Source of the DNA: an uncultured bacterium
GTDB lineage: Bacteria; Patescibacteriota; Minisyncoccia; Phycocordibacterales; GWA1-40-21
Length of the DNA stretch: 64,000 nt
Direction: 5' to 3'
NCBI GenBank assembly: GCA_903831595.1
Contig: CAIKXY010000007.1
Span: 3,944 to 67,943 of the forward strand
Positions 14,822-49,330 of the stretch are shown here, piece by piece. Every line of letters begins with the position of its first letter. The stretch's first letter is position 1. A program made the translations under genes and the position numbers. The notes below the pieces were generated by a model. The model did no database searches, was not told where the DNA came from, and saw nothing but the letters and a program-made list of their open reading frames with translations.

Positions 14822-15022
14822 ATGAAACAATGTTTTTTCTCACAAAATAATATCAAGTATGTAGATTACAAAGACGTAGAACTTTTGAAGAAGTTTTTGA
14901 ATCCCCATGCAAGAATGCAAGGTAAAAAGAAAACCAATGTCAAAGCAAGAAGCCAAAGACAGCTTTCTGAAGCTATAAAGAGGGCAAGATACATGGCTCT
15001 TTTGCCTTTTGTCGCAAGATAA
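14822..15022 (+). CDS. rpsR: 30S ribosomal protein S18
   Basis: KKFLNPHARMQGKKKT...RQLSEAIKRARYMALLPF S18 signature. Confidence 0.85.
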   Translation: MKQCFFSQNNIKYVDYKDVELLKKFLNPHARMQGKKKTNVKARSQRQLSEAIKRARYMALLPFVAR

Positions 15023-37247: not shown

Positions 37248-38300
37248 TTATATTTCTTTCAACTTAGCTCTTATTTGTTTCAATATTTCACTAGCAACTT
37301 TTCCATTCTCTTTCAAGAATGTTCTTGCTGAATCATAACCGCGTCCAATTTTTTCACCATTGTATTCATACGAAGAACCAGATTTTTTTATTATTTCCAT
37401 TTTTTCTCCAAGCGCTAGTATTTCTCCTTCTTTTGAAATACCTTCGTTATACATAAGATCAAATTCTGTTTGTTTGAATGGGGCAGCAACTTTATTTTTT
37501 ACAACTTTTACACGGACTCTTCCTCCCATTATTTCTTCGCCCTTCTTTATTTGTGCAATTCTTCTTATATCAAGTCTGACAGAAGTATAAAATTTCAAAG
37601 CTTTTCCTCCCGGAGTAGTTTCTGGGTTGCCAAACATAACGCCAATTTGCATTCTAATTTGATTTATGAAAATTACGATTGTTTTTGACTTTGCGACAAT
37701 CGCAGTGAGTTTTCGGAGAGCCTGTGACATCAACCTTGCTTGTTTACCGACGTGATATGCCCCCATGTCGCCTTCAATCTCATCTTTAGGGGTAAGTGCA
37801 GCCACAGAGTCAATAACAATGATATCTATCTTTCCTGAGCGGACCAAGCTATCAACAATATCAAGTGCTTGTTCTCCATTGTCTGGCTGAGAAATTAATA
37901 GTTGGTCAATTTTTACTCCAATCTTTTTTGCATATTCTGGGTCCATGGCATGTTCTGCGTCTATATAAGCACAGACACCGTCCATTTTTTGTGCTTCGGC
38001 AACAGCGTGAAGGGCAAGGGTAGTTTTTCCTGAAGATTCTGGTCCAAATATTTCAATAATTCTACCTCTTGGGAATCCTCCAACGCCAAGAGCAGCATCA
38101 AGGCCAATTGAGCCAGACGGAATTACATTTATGTTTAATCTTGGTTTATCTCCAAGCATCATAATAGAATCATCACCAAATTTGGTTTTTATTGCATCAA
38201 TAGCGTCTTCTATCTTGTGTGAATTTGCTTCCTTTTTTTCTACTTGTGTCTCAACTGATTCGTTTGAATCTTGTTTTTTTTCTTTTACTTTTTTTACCAT
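37248..38300 (-). CDS. recA: recombinase RecA
   Basis: [20 protein letters not shown] Walker A, plus L1/L2 loops. 350 aa. Confidence 0.9.
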
Positions 38301-38359
38301 GGTTATCTTGTTAAAATTTATAAATTTCTTCCAAATAATTATATCATATCTTTTATATT

Positions 38360-38713
38360 CTACTTATAAATCACCTCAATAATTTTTTCTGTATTTCTAC
38401 CAAATTTATCACTAGCTTTTATGACAATTGCATTATATCCATATGATAATAAAACCTGCTCTTTAAAATTTCCTTGCTCATCAATAAATATTTTTCTGTC
38501 ATCCAAGCTTATGTCTTTGATATTTTTCGCAATTCCAGATACTTCTGTTAAAGAATCAGATACCAAGGCTCCATTTTTGGGGGAGAGTACAGTAATTCTT
38601 GGTCCAAATAAGACTCTTTGTATTTCAAACCCAGTGTAGATCAAAACAAATAATGTGATTACTGAAATAATAATTATTTTAAGCAATTTTCTTGTTGCAT
38701 GTCTGTCTGTCAT
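38360..38713 (-). CDS. small TM-anchored protein (hypothetical), downstream of ftsK
   Basis: 117 aa with an N-terminal TM ([16 protein letters not shown]). Its start lies 2 nt after the ftsK stop. Confidence 0.45.
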
Positions 38714-38715
38714 GG

Positions 38716-40995
38716 CTATAAGTAGTCTCCCTCATTATGCTCAACCCCTTCAAGTGGTTTTTCTTCAACATCTTCAACTTTACTTGCCCCAATAACTTCT
38801 CTTGCTTTTGCTCCATCACCTGGACCAATAACTCCTTTTTGTTCAAGTAAATCTATAAGTCTAGCGGCTCTTGAATATCCAACTCGAAGCTTTCTTTGTA
38901 TATATGAAGTTGAAGCCTTTCCAGCCCTCAAAACTTCCTCCTTGGCTTGTTCGTATAGTTCATCGTCCGCATCATCATCTAAGCTGTTGAATACACCAAC
39001 TCCGTCACTTTCTCCACCTTTTGCGACTTCTGCAAGGTCAATTTCTCCACCTATAAGCTCATTTTTATATTCATCAACTAAATATTTCACCACATCTTTT
39101 ACTTCTTTTTCAGAAACAAAAGCAGATTGAATTCTGATAGGTTTTGACATTTCTCCTCCCATAAATAGCATGTCTCCAGCACCGAGAAGTTTTTCTGCAC
39201 CCGGAGTATCTAAAATTGTTCGTGAATCGATTTGTGATACAACTTGGAGTGCAATTCTTGAAGGAATGTTTGCTTTAATAATACCAGTAATAACATTTAC
39301 GCTAGGTCTTTGTGTCGAAATTATAAGGTGAATACCAACAGCTCTGCTCATCTGTGCCAAGCGGACGATACCAGCCTCAAGCTCACGTGGATAAGCCATC
39401 ATAATATCTGCAAGTTCATCAATGACAATAACAATGTATGGCATTGGTTCTGGAGCGGTATGTTTTTCTGGGTTGTAAGTACCTTTTTTCTTTAATTCAT
39501 CAATTTTCTTTATTTCAGGAGCCAAAATATTTTTATGATATGAATCAATATCTTTTACAGCCATTGATTCTAAAATATCATATCTGCGATCCATTTCTTT
39601 TGTTGCCCATTTCAAAGCAAGAATTGTTTTCTTTGCATCGGTAATTACAGGTGTGAGAAGGTGGGGAATTTTGTTATACAAAGTAAGCTCAACTCTTTTT
39701 GGGTCAATCATAATGAATCTCATACTTTCTGGTGAATTTCTGTAAAGCAAAGATGTAATAATTGCATGAATGGTAACGGATTTTCCAGAACCAGTAGCAC
39801 CAGCGACAAGAACGTGGGGCATTTTTGCAATGTTAACGAAATGTGATTTTCCAGAAATACCTTTTCCAAGTGTTACGAGCAAAGGTTTGTCTGATTTTTG
39901 AAATTCTTCAGAGCCAATAAGCATTGAAAGACCGACTGTGGATTTTATTGAATTCGGTATCTCAATACCCACGAGAGACTTCCCGGGTATTGGCGCTTCA
40001 ATTCTAAGTGGGTGGGCAGCAAGGGCAAGTGACAAGTCATTTTGCAGTCCTAAAATTCTTGAAATTTTTACACCCTCTGCAGGTTTTAATGCATATCTTG
40101 TGACAGAAGGGCCGATTGAAACTTCATCCATTTCCACATCGATGCCAAAATTTTGCAAAGTTCTTTTTATTATATTTGCGTTCGCTTTTATGTCACCAGA
40201 AACAACTCTACCTTTATCATCTTCAAGTAAAGATAGTGGGGGAGGAACATATTTTGTACTACCAACGGCGCGTGGGTTGTATTTAATCCCTGATTCTTCA
40301 TCCTCGTTAGTTTTTACAAAGAAACCTTTTGACTGTTTTTTGTCTCTTTTGTCCTCTTTTTCTTTTTCAGCTTCATCTGCTTTTTCTTCATCTTCCTCTG
40401 CTTTGTCAGCAATCATTTTAATGTCTTCGTCGGCGTTTTCATCTTCCTCTTTTTCTTTCTTTTTCCAAAACATTAATGAATCAATTGTAAGCTTTGTTTC
40501 AAATAAAATTAAGAAGGAAATAATTAATAGTGCAATTAATATTATTGCACTCGCGTAAAATCCAAACATTTTTAAAAGGGGAGTGGAAATAACCCATCCA
40601 ACATAACCACCTTGGGCGATCCAATATTGTGTTGAGATTAAATTAATAAGCCCAAGCCCTGAAATAAAAAAGAAAAGGCCGCCAAAAATTTTTAATTTGT
40701 TTAAATTTTTTTCTTCCGCCTTAAAAAATGAAATACCGAGCATAAGAAAAAATACTGGCAAAAGAAAATACCCAATACCCAGAAACAAGAAGAGTATTTT
40801 AAAAATCTCTTTACCGACTGGGCCGGCAAAACTTCCGCCATCAGAATTATTGATAGATGCGAGAATAAAAATAATTGCAAGTACAATGAAAACCACAGCA
40901 AAAATTCCTTGCCTAGTTTGATGTTTAATTCCGCTTAGAATATTTTCCTTCGATGATTTTTGGAGCGTTTTTTTGTCTTTATTTTTTTTAGCCAT
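38716..40995 (-). CDS. ftsK: DNA translocase FtsK/SpoIIIE
   Basis: N-terminal TM helices, K/E/D-rich linker, motor domain with VAGATGSGKSV Walker A, and a C-terminal gamma wHTH (YIQRKLRVGYSRAARLIDLLEQKGVI). Confidence 0.85.
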   Translation of the reverse strand: MAKKNKDKKTLQKSSKENILSGIKHQTRQGIFAVVFIVLAIIFILASINNSDGGSFAGPVGKEIFKILFLFLGIGYFLLPVFFLMLGISFFKAEEKNLNKLKIFGGLFFFISGLGLINLISTQYWIAQGGYVGWVISTPLLKMFGFYASAIILIALLIISFLILFETKLTIDSLMFWKKKEKEEDENADEDIKMIADKAEEDEEKADEAEKEKEDKRDKKQSKGFFVKTNEDEESGIKYNPRAVGSTKYVPPPLSLLEDDKGRVVSGDIKANANIIKRTLQNFGIDVEMDEVSIGPSVTRYALKPAEGVKISRILGLQNDLSLALAAHPLRIEAPIPGKSLVGIEIPNSIKSTVGLSMLIGSEEFQKSDKPLLVTLGKGISGKSHFVNIAKMPHVLVAGATGSGKSVTIHAIITSLLYRNSPESMRFIMIDPKRVELTLYNKIPHLLTPVITDAKKTILALKWATKEMDRRYDILESMAVKDIDSYHKNILAPEIKKIDELKKKGTYNPEKHTAPEPMPYIVIVIDELADIMMAYPRELEAGIVRLAQMSRAVGIHLIISTQRPSVNVITGIIKANIPSRIALQVVSQIDSRTILDTPGAEKLLGAGDMLFMGGEMSKPIRIQSAFVSEKEVKDVVKYLVDEYKNELIGGEIDLAEVAKGGESDGVGVFNSLDDDADDELYEQAKEEVLRAGKASTSYIQRKLRVGYSRAARLIDLLEQKGVIGPGDGAKAREVIGASKVEDVEEKPLEGVEHNEGDYL

Positions 40996-41368
40996 TTATA
41001 TTTATTTAGTATAAACTTTTAATTTACAATATTATAACTTAATCCAATTATATCAAATTTTTTTTATTATTTCTTGTTATATTTTGTCGATAATTTTTTT
41101 CGGCTATTCTTTATGGTATTAATTTCTTAAATATTTTTTTATACACATATAAAAAAAATAAATCACTAACATATTCAGTAAAATTTAGGTCTATTGCCAC
41201 AGTAATAAAGAATGTTTCGCAATGGTGTATTTGCTCTTTACAATTTTTTACGGACATAATATTATTATCTAACTTAACCATTTGTCCAATAAGTTCTTTT
41301 AAAGACAAAATTAAAAGGACAGTAATATAATAAAGGACGTTTTATTAAAGACAATAATCAACTTAATT

Positions 41369-42193
41369 ATGGAAAACAATAACCAAAATAATTTAGTTAA
41401 TTCTCAAGGTAAAAATAACTCTATTGTTAAAGCCGATATTGGAATATTGTTTGATGGTGACTCTTACGGACTATTTATTTTTCAAAAGACAGAAAAGCTA
41501 GTAAAAGGAATATATCTGCTCACTAGCCATATGTCTGATAAAGAGCCAATGAAAGAAAGAGCTCGACATATTTCTCACAAGATGCTTGGTAGCGTTTTGG
41601 AAATGTCCGATAGAATTTGGGGCGAAGAAACATATCATAAAAATCTACTGTCAGCTATTACTGAAATATCAACCCTTTTTGATATTGCAGAACACACCAA
41701 AATGATATCAAGAAATAACCACCATATAATTAACACAGAATTGACAAAATTAGCTAATTTTTTGATTACTTCGGCGTCGAATTATTCTTCAGCAAAGATC
41801 GCTTTTGAACCGAATCTTTTTGATGGAGATTATAATTTTGTGCAAGATCAGGTCTTTCCAAATTCGCATCAGAACCAAAACCATATCAAAAGTGATTTTG
41901 TAAAGGACAATTATAAAGGACAGACTCAATCGGACAGAACAACCATAAACAGTGATATGTCTTTAACAAAAAATGTTGTCCCAGAAAAAATCATAAAGGA
42001 CAAAAATAATAGGCAAGAAATAATACTCTCAATGTTAAAAAGCGGGGTTAAACTAACCATCAAGGATTTTGCAAAGAATATAAAGGGTTGTAGTGAAAAA
42101 ACAATCCAACGAGAACTTCTATCACTTGTTTCGAAAGGTGTCCTAAAGAAAGAAGGGGAGAGAAGATGGTCAAAATATTTTATCATAAAATAA
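41369..42193 (+). CDS. hypothetical protein with C-terminal winged-HTH-like segment
   Basis: 274 aa. The C-terminus IKDFAKNIKGCSEKTIQRELLSLVSKGVLKKEG resembles a DNA-binding wHTH. Confidence 0.5.
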   Translation: MENNNQNNLVNSQGKNNSIVKADIGILFDGDSYGLFIFQKTEKLVKGIYLLTSHMSDKEPMKERARHISHKMLGSVLEMSDRIWGEETYHKNLLSAITEISTLFDIAEHTKMISRNNHHIINTELTKLANFLITSASNYSSAKIAFEPNLFDGDYNFVQDQVFPNSHQNQNHIKSDFVKDNYKGQTQSDRTTINSDMSLTKNVVPEKIIKDKNNRQEIILSMLKSGVKLTIKDFAKNIKGCSEKTIQRELLSLVSKGVLKKEGERRWSKYFIIK

Positions 42194-42199
42194 AGGACA

Positions 42200-42242
42200 A
42201 AAATAGCTCGATTTCCAAGGCCGGAAATCGAGCTATTTTTGT
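42200..42242 (+). terminator. rho-independent terminator
   Basis: ATAGCTCGATTTCC-AAGGCC-GGAAATCGAGCTAT (14-bp stem), then a T-run. Confidence 0.75.
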
Positions 42243-43121
42243 CCTTTTTTAGTGCTACATTTGTTGGTGTTTGAATCTCTATTATATCGAGCCAATTTTG
42301 GATTTAAAGATGTGGTTTAGCATTATAAAAGCCGATGCAAGATTAACTATAGTTTACATGTATTTTTTGTTGCTTTTCGATTAATAATATGTAAGAATGT
42401 ATATGTGGTCGTAATTAGTTGCAGTTTTTATTTAAAGCCTTTAATTTTTTAAGAGTTAAGCGCAGTAAATAGAAGCTTTTTTTAGTTATCCACAGTTATA
42501 TATTTTGCTAGATATTCTAACAAGATATATAATATACATTGAGATTTATTAAGTGCCAAAAAGTGCTTTATAATTCTCAAGATTTAGACGGCTGAAAGGC
42601 GGTCTAATCGGCTTAATCTGAAAGGATTAGGTTAATACAGAAATACTGATTCGGGTTTGCTCAAACCCATTTGTCAGTGGTCGAGAACTTTGACAATTGA
42701 ATATTCGGAAATACAGAAAGTTCAGTTTTAGTTTATGTAACTAATCCAACTTTTTTGTGTCGAACTCAAACACTTTAAAAAACTTTCATCTGCTCAAGGT
42801 GATCGTGTGTATGAGAATATGAAAAAGAGGGAATAGTAGAAAGAAAGTCGCGTGTGCAATGTGTTGGCCACGTGTTATCTCGAAATTTTTAGAAGGTCAT
42901 TTTAAGAATTTCAATGAGAGCAGAAACATTCATCAGGTTTAAATAAATTTGTTTTTAGTCGAAACATTTTATTTTGCTTACGATTTAATAAAATGAAAAT
43001 TTTGTTTATCAAAAAGTTCACTGGTGAGAAAATAAAGATGATTCTTTCCAACGTTATTAGTTTTTTATTAGTTAATGTTCGGGAAAGTTTTTTCTTTTAA
43101 TTTAAAAATTACAAATTAGAT

Positions 43122-46100
43122 ATGAGTAAAAAATTAATTGGTATCTTTGCGTCAGTCGCATTGGTACTTTCATTGGCAGGTGCAAATGTTGCATCAGCTT
43201 TGACAGCAAGTGATATATCTATGCTTTTAGGAGCAGGGATAATCAGTGCTTCTCAAGCCGCAACACTTACAGCTTCATTAGCTCCAGCATCAGTCACAGT
43301 GTCAGCAGGATATAACTTTGCAAAAGATTTAACAATCGGAAGCAAGGGTGCTGATGTTACAGCATTACAAAATTTGCTAGGAGTTTCTCCAGCAACAGGA
43401 TTTTTTGGAGCAAAAACAAAAGCTGCTCTTATAACATTCCAGTTGTCAAAAGGAATTACACCTGCATCAGGATATTTTGGTGCTAAAACAAGAAAAATAG
43501 CAAATGCTTCAGCAGGAACTACAGTTTCAAATGGTACAACAACAGTCGTTCCAACAGGAACAAGTGTCGCAGTATCATTAGCAGCAAGTTCACCTGTTTC
43601 AGGTGCTATTATTGCAGGTCAAGCAGCAGCTGATCTTGCGGAATATACATTCCAAAACACATCAGCAGCTCCAGCAGTTGTCACAAACGTAACATTACAA
43701 AGAGGTGGAGTATCAGCAGATACATCACTTTCAAATGTTTATTTGTTCCAAGGTGCTGTTAGATTGACAGACGCAGCAACAGTTTCAGCAGGAAAAATTA
43801 CATTTAATGCTGGACAAGGATTGTTTACAATCCCTGCAGGTTCTTCAGTTACAATAGCTGTTAAGTCAGATATTCTTCTTTCAGCAGCAGCAGGCCAGAC
43901 AGTTAATGTTTCACTTTTGAGTGTAACATTAGGGTCAACAAGCCAAGTAGTCTCAGCTGTATATCCAGTATCTGGTGCAGTCATGACAGTTGCTTCAGCA
44001 GGAGATATTTCACCACTTAGTCTTGCAAAAGTAGCAGTTAGTCAAAGTGTTACAGCAGGAACATTAAGTCAAACAATTTGGTCAGCAAATTTATCTGGTA
44101 TAACAAGATATGTCTGGTTAAAGAGTTTGGCAGTTAAAGTTATTGGTTCAATTCCTTCAAATTCACTTCAGAATTTGAATCTCTACATTTCAGGTATTCA
44201 AGCAGCTACAGCTTCTGGTGTGGATGCAAACGGTATGATCACTTTCGATCTTACTGCTAAGCCATACAAGATAGACAGCTCAAGAACTCTTGAAGTAAGA
44301 GCAGATATTGTTAATGGTTCATCAAGATCATTCTCATTATCACTTCAGAATGCAGCTGATATTTCTGTTATAGATTCAAACTATAACGTTGGAATTGCAG
44401 CTTCAGGACTTCCAATAACAACAGATAATATTTCTGTTACCGTTGGTAATGTATCTATTTCTCAGGATTCAAACTTGAGTGCTGGAAATATAGTTTACGG
44501 CTCAACAAATATTCCTTTGGCACAATACACATTAAAAGCTTATGGTGAAGATGAAAAGATTTCATATCTTAACATTTCAGCCAACCAAAAATTGTCAAAT
44601 GTTGCTTTGTACGCAAACGGCATTGCAATTTCAAGCTCACAAAATGTATTGCCAACAGCAAGCACTTTGTTTAGCTTAGGTTCTTCTTTGGTAATAGGTG
44701 CAAACCAAACAGTTACACTTACAGTTAAAGGAGATTTGAAAGATTCAACAGGTAGTAGTACTCCAGTTGGTTCTCAGGTTATTATTACTTTGGGTGGTTA
44801 TGCAAATAACACACAAGGTTCATATTCTTCACAAATGTGTACATTCCCTGGAACGGGAGGTACAATTGCTGGTTGTCCAACAGTGGTTTCTACAATTGCT
44901 GGCCCAACAATGACAATCGTCGGTGGAGGTTTGACAGTTTCTACAAATGCTTCATTTAACAACTCATCAATAACAGCCAATTCAACTGGTGTTAAGATAG
45001 GTTCGTTTAATTTGAGCTCAAACTCATCAGAACCAGTAAGAATTACTACTTTGGTGTTGGGTATTGCTTCATCAAGCACTTTACCTTTGTCAGGTTTGTC
45101 AAATTTGAAAATTTCAGATGCTAATACATCTGTAAATCCTCAAAGTTCAAACAACTTTGGAGTAAACTTCACAATCCCAGCAAATGGCACACACGTAGTA
45201 GATGTATTTGCAGATGTCGGAGCTCTAGCAGGTATTGCAAATAGCGCTTCAACAAATGTTACTAGTACAACAACAGGAACAACAGCGACATATGCTACTG
45301 GTACAATTACTGTTTCATCACCAAGTCTTCAAGCTTCAACAACAGTTAACGGGGTTCTTTATGCTGTTAACATTGCAAACGCTACACAATCAACTTCAAC
45401 AACAGCTGCACAATTAGCTACAGCTATTCAGAATGGACAATCAGGTGTTGTTACCGCAACAGCAAATGCAGGTGTTATAACACTTACATCAGTTGCAATT
45501 GGTACTGGTAACGGTATCAATACAGGTAATGCTATAACAATGGTTGCAGGAGGAAATACAGCGGTTAATGGTGCCACATTAGTTGGTGGTACAGCTGGTA
45601 CAGCATCAACTGCTACAGTCCAACCTGGTTCAATAGTTGCAGGAAACACATTTACGTTAAAAGTAAATGGTATTACATACAGCTATGTTGCTAACACAGG
45701 CGATACGAACATATCAGTTTCTGATGGTTTGAAAGCAGCTATTGGAAGTGCACTTTCTGGTATTGCTACAATTAATGCAACCGGAAATACTTCAGTTATA
45801 ATAACTGCAAGTCCAATAACATCTGCTAATAATACTATTGTTCAAGGTGTCACATCGGGAACTATTACAGGTACAACATCTTTAACAAATCAAATTATTA
45901 CAAGTTTGGCAGTCACAGCTACAGGTGTTAATAGCAATATTGATGCCTCACAAGTTACACCTATATATGGACAGGTATTGACAGTTGGAAATGGTTCATT
46001 GTCAACAACAGGTCTTGCATCAGGTATTACACCAACATCAGCACAACTTGTTATCGGTGGTTCAACATCAGCAAACGCAGTTATTGGAACATATACATTT

Positions 46101-46907
46101 AAATCAACTATCGGTACTTCAGTTATTACTGATCTTGGATTTATGGCAAGCTCTACAAACTTGAATGCGATTACATCAATTTCTGTTGGAGGAGTCACAG
46201 TTCCAGTTTCAGCAGGTGCTACAACAACAATTTCTGGTCTAAATATTCAAATCCCAGTTTCAAATGTGGGTACAAATATTCCAGTTTCTGTTGCTTATAA
46301 CACAGTTGGAGTAACAGCCGGAGGTATTACATCTGGAGTTCCAGTTCAGTTGGTATTAACTTCTGTAAAATATCAAGCAGGAAATAATACAACAACGTTC
46401 TATCCAAACAAACCAACATTGGCTATGTCACCAGTAGCTGCTTACCCACTTGTTTCTTTGGTGTCTTCATCAAGAACAGGTTTGTCAAACAGCACTTCAG
46501 TTAAATTGGCCGACATAACAATTACAGTTGTTGGTAAGACAGTTGAAATGTCTACAATTGGAGTCACTGTATCACTTGGAAAAACAGCAAGCACAACAGG
46601 CTCAGCTCTTATTCTAAAGGATAACAACAACACAATCGTAGCAACATCATCAGCCATTGGTACAGATGGTGCAAATAGAACACTTACATTTGTTCCTACA
46701 TATAACTTAGCCCCAGGTACATATAATTATGCACTATACGGCTCTGTTAGTGCCGTAACATCTGGTGTTAATACAGATTCTCTTACAACACAGCTAAGTG
46801 CACCAACAACATTAGGATGGTACGATGTCGAAGGAAATTCAAGTCTCTTAGATGCGACTTTGATCCCTTCATATAACACATCAAATCAAGCCTACTTGTC
46901 TAACTAA
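43122..46907 (+). CDS. giant secreted cell-surface protein (S-layer/adhesin-like), S/T/A/G/V-rich, with N-terminal peptidoglycan-binding-like repeat
   Basis: Signal peptide MSKKLIGIFASVALVLSLAGANVASA. Tandem GADVTALQNLLGV...GFFGAKTKAALITFQ / GYFGAKTRKI segments resemble PG_binding_1. ~1100 aa low-complexity beta-rich region. Confidence 0.7.
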   Translation: MSKKLIGIFASVALVLSLAGANVASALTASDISMLLGAGIISASQAATLTASLAPASVTVSAGYNFAKDLTIGSKGADVTALQNLLGVSPATGFFGAKTKAALITFQLSKGITPASGYFGAKTRKIANASAGTTVSNGTTTVVPTGTSVAVSLAASSPVSGAIIAGQAAADLAEYTFQNTSAAPAVVTNVTLQRGGVSADTSLSNVYLFQGAVRLTDAATVSAGKITFNAGQGLFTIPAGSSVTIAVKSDILLSAAAGQTVNVSLLSVTLGSTSQVVSAVYPVSGAVMTVASAGDISPLSLAKVAVSQSVTAGTLSQTIWSANLSGITRYVWLKSLAVKVIGSIPSNSLQNLNLYISGIQAATASGVDANGMITFDLTAKPYKIDSSRTLEVRADIVNGSSRSFSLSLQNAADISVIDSNYNVGIAASGLPITTDNISVTVGNVSISQDSNLSAGNIVYGSTNIPLAQYTLKAYGEDEKISYLNISANQKLSNVALYANGIAISSSQNVLPTASTLFSLGSSLVIGANQTVTLTVKGDLKDSTGSSTPVGSQVIITLGGYANNTQGSYSSQMCTFPGTGGTIAGCPTVVSTIAGPTMTIVGGGLTVSTNASFNNSSITANSTGVKIGSFNLSSNSSEPVRITTLVLGIASSSTLPLSGLSNLKISDANTSVNPQSSNNFGVNFTIPANGTHVVDVFADVGALAGIANSASTNVTSTTTGTTATYATGTITVSSPSLQASTTVNGVLYAVNIANATQSTSTTAAQLATAIQNGQSGVVTATANAGVITLTSVAIGTGNGINTGNAITMVAGGNTAVNGATLVGGTAGTASTATVQPGSIVAGNTFTLKVNGITYSYVANTGDTNISVSDGLKAAIGSALSGIATINATGNTSVIITASPITSANNTIVQGVTSGTITGTTSLTNQIITSLAVTATGVNSNIDASQVTPIYGQVLTVGNGSLSTTGLASGITPTSAQLVIGGSTSANAVIGTYTFKSTIGTSVITDLGFMASSTNLNAITSISVGGVTVPVSAGATTTISGLNIQIPVSNVGTNIPVSVAYNTVGVTAGGITSGVPVQLVLTSVKYQAGNNTTTFYPNKPTLAMSPVAAYPLVSLVSSSRTGLSNSTSVKLADITITVVGKTVEMSTIGVTVSLGKTASTTGSALILKDNNNTIVATSSAIGTDGANRTLTFVPTYNLAPGTYNYALYGSVSAVTSGVNTDSLTTQLSAPTTLGWYDVEGNSSLLDATLIPSYNTSNQAYLSN

Positions 46908-46957
46908 CCACTTGTGATTCTATCTATAGGATTCGCTATAGAAGAATAGGTTGAGAG

Positions 46958-46995
46958 ATAGGCCAGTCGCGCAAGCGACTGGCCTATTTCTTTTG
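46958..46995 (+). terminator. rho-independent terminator (first of three tandem hairpins)
   Basis: ATAGGCCAGTCGC-GCAA-GCGACTGGCCTAT, then TTCTTTT. Confidence 0.7.
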
Positions 46996-47020
46996 TATGA
47001 TTTACAAATTTATGATTTAC

Positions 47021-47046
47021 AAAAAACCGCCTTCGGGCGGTTTTTT
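47021..47046 (+). terminator. rho-independent terminator (second hairpin)
   Basis: AAAAAACCGCCTTCGGGCGGTTTTTT. Confidence 0.7.
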
Positions 47047-47064
47047 GCTTGCAACAAAATTAAT

Positions 47065-47095
47065 AAACTCCCCGAGGTGGAGCCTCGGGGAGTTT
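47065..47095. repeat. REP-like palindromic element copy 1 (AAACTCCCCGAGGTGGAGCCTCGGGGAGTTT)
   Basis: Hairpin CCCCGAGG-TGGAG-CCTCGGGG. The same 21-nt core occurs at 47316-47336 (loop inverted) and 47798-47818. Confidence 0.7.
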
Positions 47096-47147
47096 ATTAA
47101 CAAAAAATTTAATTAATTCTGGAACTTATGTTAAAATATTTTTAGAT

Positions 47148-47822
47148 ATGAAGAAAAAAGTTGATATTTCAATTGGTGAATATTATCACATATATAACAG
47201 AGGAGTAGAGAAGAGGGATATTTTTATCGACACCGCTGATTATCGCAGATTTATACTATTATTACATCTTTTTAATGATGAAAAACCTATAAACGTAAGA
47301 GATTTCAAAGACTCTCCCCGAGGCTCCACCTCGGGGATAAGAAAAACCCTTGTCGATATAGGGGCATATTGTCTTATGCCGAATCATTTCCATATATTGG
47401 TAAAAGAAAAAAACGAAGGAGGAGCAAGAAATTTTTTACATAAATTAATGACTGGTTACACAATGTACTTTAATAAAAGGTATGAAAGGGTAGGGCCATT
47501 ATTTCAAGGGACTTTTAAAGCAGAACACGCAAATTCTGATGAGTATCTAAAATATTTATTTTCATATATACATTTAAATCCATTAAAAATATTTGATAAA
47601 AATTGGAAAGAAAATAGTTTGGAAGAAACAGAATCACTTAAAAAATATTTAGAAAAATATGAATACTCTAGTTATCTCGATTACCACAATCCACAGAAAT
47701 ATAGTTCAGAAATTTTAAATAAAAATTCATTTCCAGATTATTTTATTTCACAACAAGATTTTGATTCAAATATCTTTGACCTGATGAGTTATAATTTCCC
47801 CGAGGTGGAGCCTCGGGGATGA
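47148..47822 (+). CDS. REP-associated tyrosine transposase (RAYT) / IS200-like Y1 HUH transposase
   Basis: YHIYNRGVEKRDIF, AYCLMPNHFHILV (HuH motif), and YTMYFNKRYERVGPLFQGTFK ... YLKYLFSYIHLNPLK (the catalytic Tyr region typical of COG1943/RAYT). Flanked by REP hairpins. Confidence 0.8.
   Translation: MKKKVDISIGEYYHIYNRGVEKRDIFIDTADYRRFILLLHLFNDEKPINVRDFKDSPRGSTSGIRKTLVDIGAYCLMPNHFHILVKEKNEGGARNFLHKLMTGYTMYFNKRYERVGPLFQGTFKAEHANSDEYLKYLFSYIHLNPLKIFDKNWKENSLEETESLKKYLEKYEYSSYLDYHNPQKYSSEILNKNSFPDYFISQQDFDSNIFDLMSYNFPEVEPRG
47316..47336. repeat. REP-like palindrome copy 2, inside the RAYT coding sequence (loop in opposite orientation)
   Basis: CCCCGAGGCTCCACCTCGGGG, encoding the linker ...SPRGSTSG... 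in frame. Confidence 0.65.
47798..47818. repeat. REP-like palindrome copy 3 at the 3' end of RAYT
   Basis: CCCCGAGGTGGAGCCTCGGGG, encoding the C-terminal ...PEVEPRG. Confidence 0.7.
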
Positions 47823-49330
47823 AAGTTATCCACAAAAAAATTAGGAATGGGCTAAGGTGGATGATAAAATATTTTGTAATTATGCCTAAAAACAAAAAAT
47901 ATTTGTTCTTTTTATTTTGCATTTTATCAATCATTATTTCTAATTTTGTATATGTTAAAAAAGTTTTTGCGAGTCCATCTATTACATCATTTTTATTAAA
48001 TGGTGTCTCACAGTCTGCAACTATTAACCCAAATAATGGTGAAAGTGTTTCTATAGAAGTTAAAGCGAGTACGCCGGTAAAATTTACAAGGCTTTATATC
48101 TGCTCAATAAGTCAGGTATGTAATGGAACGAGTGGAAATTATACAAAATATTTTATCCAGACGGATATTTCGGATACGGTAAACAAAACTTGGGATGGAA
48201 AAAATTCTGCTGGCAATGTTGTATCAGAAGGAGAATATAAAGTTATGGCATCGATGGTGGAAGGATCAAATCTTGCAGTTACTCAATTCGGTCAATACTC
48301 GATTTTTATAAATTATTCAATTTCAAGTAGCTCAACGGAAGTAACTAGTACAGCAAGTTCAAGCGATAGTACAACAACATCTACGAACACAAGCACGACA
48401 ACCAATTTGAGCAGTACAACAAGCCCAACAGTTATAACAAGAACCGTTTATGTTTCGGCGCACTCAAGTACAGAAGATTTAAGTAATTACACGGAAAAAA
48501 TAGTTTTTCAAACATCTGCTGGCAGAGAAAGAATGGCTCTAGTTGGCTCTCCTTTGGAATTTGATGCTAAATATTTTTTCTCAAATATAAATCAGTGCAC
48601 ACCAATATTTAGATGGTCATTTGGTGATGGCTTTGATGAACCAGGAAAGAATATTACGCATACATACAAGCACGCTGGCGAGTATCAAGTTGTGTTAAAT
48701 GGAATCTGCGGAGAAGAAAGTTCAGTGTCCAGAACTATAGTAAAAGTAATTATCCCAGAAGTATCAGTCGCACAAATATTAAGTGGTGACATCGAAATAA
48801 AAAATAAAGGAAAAACAGAAATAAATATTGGAGATTGGAAAATTCGTGGTATCGAAAAATATTTTATTTTTCCAAAAGATACAATAATAAGTGCTGGAAA
48901 TAAAATTATTTTATCAAAGGAGGACTTAAACATTAGCTCATCAACGGAAAGAATTGCTTTAGTAAATCCATCTGGTAGGGAAGTCACCTATTTTAATATT
49001 ATAAGCAAAGAACAAGGGAATTCAGTTTTGTCGATGGTAGCGACAACCACACAAGCTGTAACATTATCAGATAATCCAAGCATATCTGTTGCTGATGCGG
49101 AAGTATTGGTTGAACAATATAAAAAGCAGGTTGCTGTATCTCAAATACCACAAAAAACTAAATTAATAAATAATAATAGTATAAATTCATCCGATAAAGA
49201 TAATACTCAAGAAGTTGCAACAGTGGCGGAAGCAATAACTTCTTCATCTACAAAAAGTTTCTGGGCTAAAATGATAGAGGCTCCCATAAATGGGCTAAAG
49301 GCTTTTGCACGAATATTTTACAATTTTTAA
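47819..49330 (+). CDS. secreted protein with PKD-like domain and C-terminal lamin-tail-like domain (hypothetical); likely true start ATG 47882
   Basis: Signal/TM MPKNKKYLFFLFCILSIIISNFV. FRWSFGDGFDEPGKNITHTYKHAGEYQVVLNG is a PKD signature. IGDWKIRGIEKYFIFPKDTIISAGNKIIL is LTD-like. A Ser/Thr-rich linker is present. Confidence 0.6.
   Translation: MKVIHKKIRNGLRWMIKYFVIMPKNKKYLFFLFCILSIIISNFVYVKKVFASPSITSFLLNGVSQSATINPNNGESVSIEVKASTPVKFTRLYICSISQVCNGTSGNYTKYFIQTDISDTVNKTWDGKNSAGNVVSEGEYKVMASMVEGSNLAVTQFGQYSIFINYSISSSSTEVTSTASSSDSTTTSTNTSTTTNLSSTTSPTVITRTVYVSAHSSTEDLSNYTEKIVFQTSAGRERMALVGSPLEFDAKYFFSNINQCTPIFRWSFGDGFDEPGKNITHTYKHAGEYQVVLNGICGEESSVSRTIVKVIIPEVSVAQILSGDIEIKNKGKTEINIGDWKIRGIEKYFIFPKDTIISAGNKIILSKEDLNISSSTERIALVNPSGREVTYFNIISKEQGNSVLSMVATTTQAVTLSDNPSISVADAEVLVEQYKKQVAVSQIPQKTKLINNNSINSSDKDNTQEVATVAEAITSSSTKSFWAKMIEAPINGLKAFARIFYNF

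Follow-up and report, generated by a model that had tools for sequence, protein, structure and literature searches.

Why should a bacterial gene carry the same perfect hairpin at both of its ends and a third time inside its own reading frame? The question is raised by open reading frame (ORF) 47148–47822 in a 64-kb stretch of DNA from an uncultured patescibacterium (contig CAIKXY010000007.1; the whole stretch of 64,000 nucleotides is referred to as the window). A preliminary description, made from the sequence letters, took the ORF for a RAYT (a tyrosine transposase associated with REPs, or repetitive extragenic palindromes) with flanking REPs and a further REP in its coding sequence. RAYTs and REPs are the best-known case of a domesticated bacterial transposase. 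To our knowledge, the largest RAYT branch (group 1, or subclass 2.1) has so far had no known DNA substrate. We conclude that the ORF probably encodes a domesticated Y1 HUH enzyme of the RAYT branch, with a 21-nt palindrome as the cognate hairpin that the enzyme copies or replaces.

A RAYT-like Y1 HUH protein

The 224-aa product matches the Pfam family Y1_Tnp (PF01797) over residues 67–142 with 26.9 bits (gathering threshold 23). A homologue search returned at least 8000 matches, and the family statistics given here are from the best 120 of these. Throughout this set, the residues H80, H82, Y136, Y140 and N144 and the motifs PNHFH and Y140-IHL-N144-P are invariant. The third metal ligand of such enzymes lies about four residues past the catalytic tyrosine (Quentin et al., 2018; PMC6006769), a spacing rule that makes Y140 the putative nucleophile and N144 the putative ligand. 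The AlphaFold2 model (predicted local distance difference test, pLDDT, 86; predicted template modelling score, pTM, 0.84) has a strand-helix-strand-strand-helix core followed by a helical C-terminal extension. A Foldseek search of the PDB ranked 4ER8_A, the E. coli RAYT on a REP hairpin, at the top (E 1.7e-5), followed by the IS608, ISDra2 and IS200 transposases; 4ER8, IS608 and ISDra2 were all matched with probability 1.00. REP_Tyr_transpos (NF047646) is matched by all 120 closest listed homologues as their only NCBIfam family (best E 4.5e-14), and the NCBIfam IS200 model found no match in the protein or in these 120. Among the neighbouring genes at the Y1 loci, there is no tnpB. Thus, the claim that the ORF is a Y1 HUH transposase-like protein stands, and its placement nearer to RAYTs than to the transposases of IS200 is supported. 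Homologues among the matches listed come from sources named Paceibacterota, Parcubacteria, Yonathbacteria or Minisyncoccia.

Judged by inspection of its motifs rather than with the authors' hidden Markov models (HMMs), the protein fits TnpA_Y1 subclass 2.1, the equivalent of RAYT group 1. Members of this subclass have the motifs NH[YF]H, FQ and Y[IV]HLNP, a median length of 238 aa and a C-terminal extension with a conserved Ser, and no REPs were found near their genes (Quentin et al., 2018; PMC6006769). The present protein shares the motif signature (NHFH, LFQG, YIHLNP), the near-median length and a Ser-containing extension (YSSY, within YSSYLDY). It differs in the clear cognate hairpins that flank and invade its gene and in its C-terminus: that of subclass 2.1.2 is similar to Bac_DnaA_C, HTH_23 and HTH_28 (PMC6006769), whereas no Bac_DnaA_C or helix-turn-helix (HTH) Pfam match at E ≤ 5 was obtained in the best 120 members here. 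RAYT group 1 also includes most TIRYTs, which have terminal inverted repeats (TIRs) with GGGGWSAS (Di Nocera et al., 2013; PMC3733652).

Three copies of a hairpin on one gene

A pattern search of both strands found the exact 21-mer CCCCGAGGTGGAGCCTCGGGG three times in the window, each time in association with ORF 47148–47822 (copies A, B and C; Table 1), and matches were absent from all of 100 dinucleotide shuffles. The hairpin has a stem of 8 bp, or 9 bp if the flanking T/A is counted, and a loop of 5 nt. Folded as single-stranded DNA, copy A reaches −19.5 kcal/mol (z −10.5) and copies B and C −11.1 kcal/mol each (z −5.5 and −5.8). A scan of the window for GC-rich perfect hairpins returned ordinary terminators elsewhere and none of the CCCCGAGGTGGAGCCTCGGGG family, and an Rfam search of the window found no known RNA family.

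Copy A falls within the range 47065–47095 given for it previously and is placed between the terminator of the upstream gene (approximately 47026–47050) and the promoter region of the Y1 gene. Copy B agrees in position, inverted loop and reading frame with what had been described; it is translated in frame 0 as PRGSTSG. Copy C is likewise exact and at the reported position, but it is read through rather than embedded in the gene: orthologue P0002 stops 3 nt before its 3´ hairpin, and residues 220–224, which copy C encodes, are of low confidence and disordered in the model. The peptide encoded by copy C is PEVEPRG, and the stop codon TGA (47820–47822) consists of the last hairpin base and flanking DNA. 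Copies A and C have direct, not inverted, orientation. The locus is identical in the Logan assembly SRR8496323, and contig CAJBML010000017.1 of GCA_903954215.1 departs from it at one position, the first base of the contig (46977), which is outside the gene. Being reproduced in two independent assemblies, the arrangement is not an assembly artefact.

The hairpin changes with the gene

Every orthologous locus with DNA was scanned for hairpins, 11 distinct loci in all. A cognate hairpin is present on both sides of the Y1 gene in nine of them, and its type is specific to the lineage (Table 1). In this count, L063/L064 has a flanking hairpin at the 3´ end only, and L065 has none. Four of the eight stem pairs are changed on both sides among eight variants, with the apical (G/A)AGG...CCT(C/T) constant. 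L063 has two diverged Y1 paralogues, of which the second goes with a distinct hairpin, CCCCGTAGG-ACAGT-CCTACGGGG. The window and L009 have their flanking copies in direct orientation, L054 and L062 have them inverted, and doublets occur in L006, L007 and L068. Lineage-specific co-variation across a whole locus is what an enzyme and the structure that it recognises would be expected to show.

Dispersal in a related population

The exact 21-mer was also found at five loci in two other metagenome-assembled genomes (MAGs) and at 52 metagenome loci, most of the latter from sample Ga0265338, which is the source of orthologue L007 as well. The related metagenome loci hold at least 75 exact copies in 339 kb; contigs of 90 and 120 kb have eight copies each, and the density reaches about one per 10 kb. 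When up to two mismatches are allowed, 93 copies are found, and these include 25 close pairs. All but one of the pairs (24 of 25) have the polarity [CTCCA-loop][TGGAG-loop], and in 18 the two starts are 44–46 nt apart, corresponding to a 24-nt spacer. Spacers are only loosely similar, with an identical spacer seen once (L028, two copies). We regard these inverted doublets, of which there are none in the window, as similar in sequence arrangement to REPINs (REP doublets forming hairpins).

The 21-mer has no stop codon in any of its six frames, and about one third of the copies are located deep inside long ORFs. The hosts of in-frame copies, whose identity Pfam confirmed, are RuvC, RNase HII, UvrC, the NAD-dependent DNA ligase LigA, GatB, Fmt, MnmA and an HI0933-like flavoprotein. 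The insert in these housekeeping genes of related bacteria of the Candidate Phyla Radiation (CPR) is either the 21-nt hairpin or a 66-nt inverted doublet, and the resulting peptides are PRGSTSG, PRGGASG, PEVEPRG or PRLHLG. Three flavoprotein orthologues illustrate the two states, one having a single copy where the two others have a doublet. Co-variation with the gene and dispersal in a related population bear out the earlier identification of a RAYT with a cognate REP-like hairpin.

Table 1. Features of the Y1 locus, hairpin types at orthologous loci and sites in related DNA
Locus	Feature	Position	Strand	Remark
Window	Y1 HUH tyrosine transposase-like gene, RAYT-like, 224 aa	47148–47822	+	From profiles, motifs and AlphaFold2 model
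Window	HuH motif H80-F-H82	47385–47393	+	Putative residue roles, after PMC6006769
Window	Putative catalytic Tyr, Y140, within YIHLNP	47565–47567	+	Putative role, after PMC6006769
Window	Putative metal-ligand position, N144	47577–47579	+	Putative role, after PMC6006769
Window	Conserved C-terminal extension	Residues 146–215	+	
Window	Putative extended −10 of Y1 gene, TGTTAAAAT	47129–47137	+	By resemblance to consensus only
Window	Hairpin copy A, loop TGGAG	Core 47070–47090	+	Inside perfect 18-bp-stem palindrome 47060–47100
Window	Hairpin copy B, reverse complement of CCCCGAGGTGGAGCCTCGGGG	47316–47336		Loop CTCCA on + strand; in frame, codons 57–63
Window	Hairpin copy C, loop TGGAG	47797–47819, core 47798–47818	+	Read through by ORF
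Window	AGTTATCCACA box with TTAGGA / TGATAAAAT promoter-like region	47824–47870	+	Belongs to downstream PKD/LTD gene, not to element
Window	Hairpin type CCCCGAGG-TGGAG-CCTCGGGG	Upstream, linker, 3´		
L054	Window-type hairpin (CCCCGAGG-TGGAG)	Upstream, linker, 3´		
L006	Window-type hairpin (CCCCGAGG-TGGAG)	Both sides, linker		Inverted doublets on both sides
L007	Window-type hairpin (CCCCGAGG-TGGAG)	Both sides		Two copies per side, none in linker
L009	CCCCGAGGT-TAA-ACCTCGGGG	Upstream, linker, 3´		
L062	CCCCGAGGT-GAG/CTC-ACCTCGGGG	Upstream, linker, 3´		
L063/L064	CCCCAAGG-GCGGT/ACCGC-CCTTGGGG	Upstream, linker, 3´		
L066	CCAAGG-TCTGG/CCAGA-CCTTGG	Upstream, linker, 3´		
L067	TCAAGG-ACGGT-CCTTGA	Both sides		
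L068	Long doublet hairpin	Both sides		
L065	No hairpin			
L001	In-frame hairpin copy	828		
L004	In-frame hairpin copy	6190		Also L012, L013, L022, L030, L047, L049
L037	In-frame hairpin copy	1910		
L059	In-frame hairpin copy	834		
L021	In-frame hairpin copy	3521		
L045/L048	In-frame hairpin copy			
L035/L061	In-frame hairpin copy			
L032/L053/L038	In-frame hairpin copy			
Window	AGTTATCCACA sites	42484–42494, 47824–47834		
L005	AGTTATCCACA sites	6513/1987		
L066	AGTTATCCACA sites	4746/10718		
L068	AGTTATCCACA sites	5798/10719/18004		
L067	AGTTATCCACA sites	19378/20506		
L018	AGTTATCCACA site	37		

A model for enzyme and hairpin

The model that we favour builds on demonstrated features of the system: the fold and motifs of the protein, its synteny, the co-variation of gene and hairpin, dispersal in a related population, in-frame insertions and hairpin-bounded presence/absence. 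ORF 47148–47822 would encode a chromosomally fixed Y1 HUH single-strand DNA endonuclease/ligase that belongs, within the IS200-like superfamily, to the RAYT (TnpA_REP) branch. The 21-nt palindrome would be the single-stranded DNA hairpin recognised by it. As judged from E. coli TnpA_REP and IS608 TnpA, the enzyme may, as a dimer, bind the hairpin when the DNA is single-stranded, e.g. in the lagging-strand template, nick near the hairpin foot by means of Y140 with a metal held by H80, H82 and N144, and then rejoin the ends. Such activity would copy or replace hairpins, most of them landing beside the enzyme's own gene. Occasional spread through the genome in some lineages could give rise to singlets and REPIN-like doublets, including copies in frame in tolerant loops of housekeeping proteins. 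Copy B may represent an insertion into the only tolerant spot of the gene itself, a disordered surface linker, kept identical to the flanks by ongoing turnover or gene conversion that would maintain the DNA palindrome and not the peptide. Copy C would be the downstream flanking hairpin, incidentally read through by the ORF. In this model, hairpin binding, the chemistry of cleavage, any preference for a strand or for action in cis, and the mechanism of homogenisation are proposed from homology.

Several observations weigh against the model. The sole NCBIfam match of the protein, REP_Tyr_transpos, scores 35.7 bits against an equivalog cut-off of 80, so that the protein is related to the curated RAYT family but not an equivalog. 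A sequence search of the PDB with the family profile gave matches to ISDra2 TnpA only (E approximately 0.6), and the fold search was needed to place the protein for this reason. In the 64-kb window, no further CCCCGAGGTGGAGCCTCGGGG copy was found at up to three mismatches, and dispersed copies are thus lacking here. Extra dispersed hairpins number zero in the 20-kb loci L066 and L067, and in the 20-kb locus L068 one extra match, to half of its hairpin, occurs at 14860. For most lineages, the "REP family" thus amounts essentially to the two or three copies that accompany the gene. The copy-rich contigs are linked to the Y1 gene of L007 by their sample of origin, and a Y1 gene is present in only two of the 52 metagenome loci. 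The RNase HII copy is identical at 21 of 21 positions in five lineages, with neighbouring coding sequence 70–80% identical, a conservation biased by the exact-match search. Similarly, the 100% pairing in the co-variation analysis is partly circular, as hairpins were chosen beforehand as perfect. No GTAG/CGTC tag or other conserved flank was seen at the hairpin foot in 75 distinct flank pairs. Finally, the orientation of the loop relative to the gene varies among loci, as would not be expected of a loop that is read on one strand.

The copy in the linker

Alignment of orthologues, as called for in the preliminary description, places SPRGSTSG upstream of HuH, in a linker (N43–I71) that joins helix A to strand 2 and is hypervariable in length and sequence. 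Model confidence is low for residues 51–66, the part of the linker with copy B (pLDDT 59 for residues 51–60). The hairpin is found in the linker at seven of the 11 loci, in both orientations, in three reading frames and 1–19 codons ahead of the conserved IG of strand 2. The encoded peptides are unrelated (PRGSTSG, PRGGASG, PRGETSG, LRGLTSG, PQGRSLG, HQGQTLV); homologue P0063 also carries PRGSTSG. Since frame, orientation, site and peptide all vary, the conserved entity is a DNA or RNA palindrome that matches the flanks rather than a peptide or a site. In L009, the linker insert includes 12 nt found after the flanking hairpins, which indicates local copying from the flank.

Two explanations fit these observations: repeated insertion or gene conversion into a tolerant loop, or selection for a role in cis. 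The first is favoured because the copy is dispensable in L007, L065 and L067, where it is missing and the protein is intact, and because the same hairpin is found in loops of unrelated proteins. The second still fits in that the trio persists in lineages that have no visible dispersed population (the window, L066 and L063). In its full form, it says that the hairpin trio or the intragenic copy is functional, either as an operator or attenuator for autocontrol, or by A–B, B–C or A–C recombination that switches the gene off or excises it as a self-limiting device. The linker copy indeed stays a perfect hairpin matching the flanks across 53–78% protein identity, B is inverted relative to C in the window, L009, L063 and L066, and the whole gene is missing in a sister lineage precisely between hairpins. 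Yet beyond the loss of the copy in three lineages, its position and orientation vary, the sequence that follows it is unlike a terminator, and no inversion or deletion variants of the Y1 gene were seen among three assemblies. The REPs found inside RAYT genes of subclass 2.4 were judged neutral by those who described them (Quentin et al., 2018; PMC6006769). On balance we consider a functional trio unlikely.

Precise absence of the gene between hairpins

L005 (MAG CAIJUJ01, found through the genome 21-mer scan) and its twin L010 (from the metagenome scan) are syntenic with the window and do not have the Y1 gene. They are the closest relatives of the window, with flanks of 83–94% nucleotide identity as compared with 70–79% for loci that carry the gene. 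Their order is the stop codon of the surface-protein gene, a terminator, one hairpin (loop CTCCA), ATGAAAGTTATCCACA... and the next gene. Compared with the window, they are missing the Y1 gene and one hairpin, 728 bp in total, and copy C forms the right boundary of the missing segment. The gene is present here in all outgroups, which makes its recent and precise loss between two hairpins the parsimonious explanation. If the joint is 3´ of the loop, the loop orientation in L005/L010 agrees with an ancestor resembling L054, with the upstream loop CTCCA. The loss may have come about by short-homology recombination or through the enzyme.

Another locus has hairpins around genes of a different kind. 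Downstream of lepA in L033 (2451–3456), hairpin singlets or doublets flank each of two small paralogous ORFs in tandem on the minus strand (108 and 131 aa, both ending in ...KYKFF), with five exact copies within 1 kb. The region looks like duplicated, hairpin-bounded cassettes; no tandem repeat was called in L033.

One possibility raised by the single hairpin left at the gene's site in the sister genome and by the bracketed L033 paralogues is that the Y1 enzyme uses hairpins as sites of recombination and excises, inverts or integrates the DNA between two of them, its own gene being one such cassette. We give this only a slim chance. If it were true, the intragenic hairpin would be a built-in way to switch off or truncate the enzyme, and the large, REP-less group 1 or subclass 2.1 of RAYTs would acquire a concrete function.

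A gene that behaves like a host gene

The presence/absence pattern, the direct copies A and C that bound the gene in the window, and the Y1 fold shared with the IS608 and ISDra2 transposases would also suit an autonomous insertion sequence (IS) of the IS200/IS605 type, with A and C as subterminal hairpins of its left and right ends and the gene still moving as a unit. The distribution of the gene makes this very improbable. It occupies one syntenic site in eight lineages (the window, L006, L007, L009, L065, L066, L067 and L068), 3´ of a giant PG_binding_1 surface-protein gene, and in the window, L006, L007, L009 and L066 it precedes a PKD/LTD surface-protein gene and the S19-L22-S3 operon. The orthologues P0005, P0006, P0011 and P0039 are encoded between these same neighbours, and P0083, P0106 and P0118 are likewise 3´ of the giant surface-protein gene. 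The divergence of the Y1 protein tracks that of ribosomal proteins: identity across loci is 53–73% for Y1, 68–80% for L22 and 83–93% for S19, with 35–47% for the adjacent surface protein. Among the matches listed, most homologue clusters at 90% identity are found on one to three contigs. The protein has 224 aa including its conserved C-terminal extension as opposed to about 150 aa (130–155 aa) in TnpA_IS200, and neither an IS200 NCBIfam match nor tnpB accompanies it. In addition, the "empty" site keeps a hairpin, unlike canonical peel-and-paste excision, and with outgroups that carry the gene, parsimony points to loss in L005. Low copy number and vertical inheritance separate RAYTs from insertion sequences (Bertels et al., 2017; PMC5581495), and the Y1 gene shows this pattern, with one copy in the 64 kb of the window, a count that pertains to this stretch rather than to complete genomes.

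The conserved gene order extends further. Over 37248–49330 and in L006, L007, L009 and L065–L068, it reads RecA, a small gene, FtsK, ..., the giant PG_binding_1 protein, the Y1 gene, a second large surface protein (PKD/LTD or Ig-like) and the ribosomal S19 operon, so that the Y1 gene is always sandwiched between fast-evolving surface-protein genes. RecA and FtsK were assigned by Pfam in L066 and L068; the corresponding window ORFs, 37248–38300 and 38716–40995, are presumed from position.

The flanks of dispersed hairpins hold at most 0.42 bits per position, with only an A-rich bias 5´ and a T-rich bias 3´ (75 distinct flank pairs), and the stem is extended by at least 4 bp in one quarter of the copies, an extension by which many copies probably double as terminators. 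REPs are known to be exapted as terminators. That the hairpins are structural or regulatory elements of the host, for instance terminators acting in both directions or stabilisers of mRNA, which accumulate in intergenic DNA and have no relation to the Y1 enzyme, is nonetheless hardly credible. Many dispersed copies do have extended palindromic flanks and a position between runs of A and T, like intrinsic terminators (L015, L025, L029, L044, L058 and copy A of the window), and hairpins do occur between a terminator and the next promoter. However, use as terminators may be a secondary exaptation, and this explanation does not account for the presence of three exact copies on a single 750-bp gene when the remaining 63 kb have none, for lineage-specific co-variation with the Y1 gene, for in-frame copies in eight housekeeping genes or for inverted doublets of fixed geometry.

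Relation to known systems

The reference for a domesticated enzyme and its hairpins is the "REPtron" reportedly formed in E. coli by TnpA_REP (RAYT, YafM) and REPs or bacterial interspersed mosaic elements (BIMEs). The present system shares with TnpA_REP the Y1 HUH fold (4ER8 being the best structural match), the Y...NP motif, a single chromosomal gene with cognate GC-rich flanking hairpins, and vertical inheritance. As with E. coli REPs, both singlets and inverted doublets of the hairpin are spread through at least one related population. However, the protein is only about 14% identical to TnpA_REP and under the NCBIfam equivalog cut-off, and the hairpin is a perfect 8–9-bp stem without the 5´ GTAG guide tetranucleotide, with direct flanking copies in the window and almost no dispersed copies in most lineages; the host is a Patescibacteria genome of about 33% GC. 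The arrangement is therefore not the "textbook" one that it had been called: it has no GTAG/CGTC tag, the window has no dispersed copies, the family score is below the cut-off, and the motifs fit a subclass reported as REP-less. The statement that such arrangements are rarely documented outside Proteobacteria was too strong, as RAYT classes have been described in Cyanobacteria, Bacteroidetes and other phyla.

The closest precedent for copy B is subclass 2.4 (RAYT group 4, of Cyanobacteria and Bacteroidetes), where tnpA_REP itself contains in-frame REPs (Quentin et al., 2018; PMC6006769). In both cases a REP resides in a peripheral variable loop of its own RAYT with the frame intact, in addition to flanking REPs. 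The in-gene copy here is upstream of HuH in the linker of helix A and strand 2, unlike that of subclass 2.4; the motifs are NHFH/FQ/YIHLNP as against NH[IFV]H/WQ/YIxNNP; and REPs of subclass 2.4 are long and GT[AG]G-tagged or have a "double foot", unlike the present hairpin. The doublets share with REPINs (Bertels and Rainey, 2011; PMC3116915) two inverted hairpin units, a short fixed spacer and the recurrence of some spacers. They differ in having been seen in a related metagenome population and not in the window, in a unit that is a perfect palindrome of which the loop alone sets the orientation, and in loosely conserved spacers. With TnpA of IS200/IS605 elements (IS608, ISDra2), the system shares the catalytic fold, hairpins that bound the gene and, by analogy, hairpin-guided cleavage and joining of single-stranded DNA; it differs in its syntenic, host-gene-like evolution, neither multi-copy nor patchy, and in the hairpin kept at the site that lacks the gene.

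Rickettsia palindromic elements (RPEs), of about 100–150 nt, have reportedly inserted in frame in genes. Like RPEs and in-gene REPs, the present repeats are found in frame in functional housekeeping genes; unlike RPEs, the unit is 21 nt (seven codons), and a candidate mobilising enzyme can be identified. Among the hosts of in-gene REPs, genes for replication and repair are enriched (Di Nocera et al., 2013; PMC3733652), and RuvC, RNase HII, UvrC and LigA are among the hosts here. REPs located within genes are described in the same study, as are REPtrons, some of them from species that lack REP families.

Thus, REPtrons, REPs within genes and even REPs within the RAYT gene have already been published in kind. 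New here are the phylum (a literature search found no paper linking RAYTs or REPs to Patescibacteria/CPR), the pairing of a subclass-2.1-like, previously "REP-less" enzyme with clear hairpins, an untagged and perfectly palindromic hairpin, and a recurrent upstream/linker/3´ trio even where there is no dispersed family. An enzyme of this kind, with at least 8000 homologues, paired with an unambiguous lineage-specific palindromic hairpin, provides a direct basis for binding and cleavage assays. Ultra-small CPR genomes host REP/REPIN-like repeats that enter essential replication and repair genes in frame, and a hairpin-bounded gene can be lost from them precisely. This is relevant to annotation, where hairpin-coded peptides such as PRGSTSG, PRGGASG and PEVEPRG are met, to breaks in metagenome assemblies and to the genome plasticity of streamlined symbionts.

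Neighbouring DNA

The putative −10 of the Y1 gene, TGTTAAAAT, was not flagged by a consensus promoter scan; a similar sequence, ATGNTAAAATATTTT, is found upstream of the next gene. At eight of the 11 Y1 loci, the 3´ hairpin is followed within 1–12 nt by (A/G)(A/G)TT(A/G)TC(C/A)ACA, often with a perfect DnaA-box consensus, TTATCCACA, which is also contained in the 11-mer AGTTATCCACA. In view of the DnaA_C-like tails reported for subclass 2.1 proteins (PMC6006769), this 11-mer was considered as part of the repeat or as a second recognition site of the enzyme and was rejected as either. It occurs without a hairpin 5–10 nt upstream of −35/−10 pairs of other genes (window 42484, L066 4746, L068 5798 and 18004, L067, L018), and none of the 120 family members matches Bac_DnaA_C, so that it is attributed to the promoter-upstream region of the downstream gene. 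In the window, it precedes the giant surface-protein gene (42484) and the PKD/LTD gene, and it is conserved across Patescibacteria lineages with GC contents of 33–48%. It has the appearance of a conserved element of the promoter-upstream or regulator-binding type. The exception to its separateness is L009, where the hairpin and 12 nt of the box are copied into the gene.

The ATGA overlap of the Y1 stop codon with ORF 47819–49330 suggested translational coupling, which was rejected as the real start is ATG 47882, according to L005, L054 and L066. The first 21 codons of that ORF are poorly conserved intergenic or promoter DNA, and from ATG 47882 the PKD/LTD protein begins with MPKNKKYLFF..., a signal-peptide-like N-terminus.

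Upstream of the Y1 gene, a 66-nt segment in 46950–47023 is missing from L005. It comprises a hairpin with a 17-bp stem (AGAGATAGGCCAGTCGC gcaa GCGACTGGCCTATTTCT; 46954–46991) followed by two direct repeats of TATGATTTACAAA, and two other assemblies break exactly in the loop of this hairpin, at 46977. Just past the stop codon of the giant surface-protein gene, CTAACTAACCACTTGTGAT... (46900–46925) is kept in L005, L054, L006, L007 and L009, among which the surrounding intergenic DNA is otherwise unalignable. A gene-free stretch of 930 bp (42194–43121) precedes the giant surface-protein gene; Rfam gave no match at E ≤ 1 for 42200–43130. A strong promoter-like site at approximately 42500–42545 implies a leader of about 580 nt, the promoter-proximal part of which is conserved in L005 and L066.

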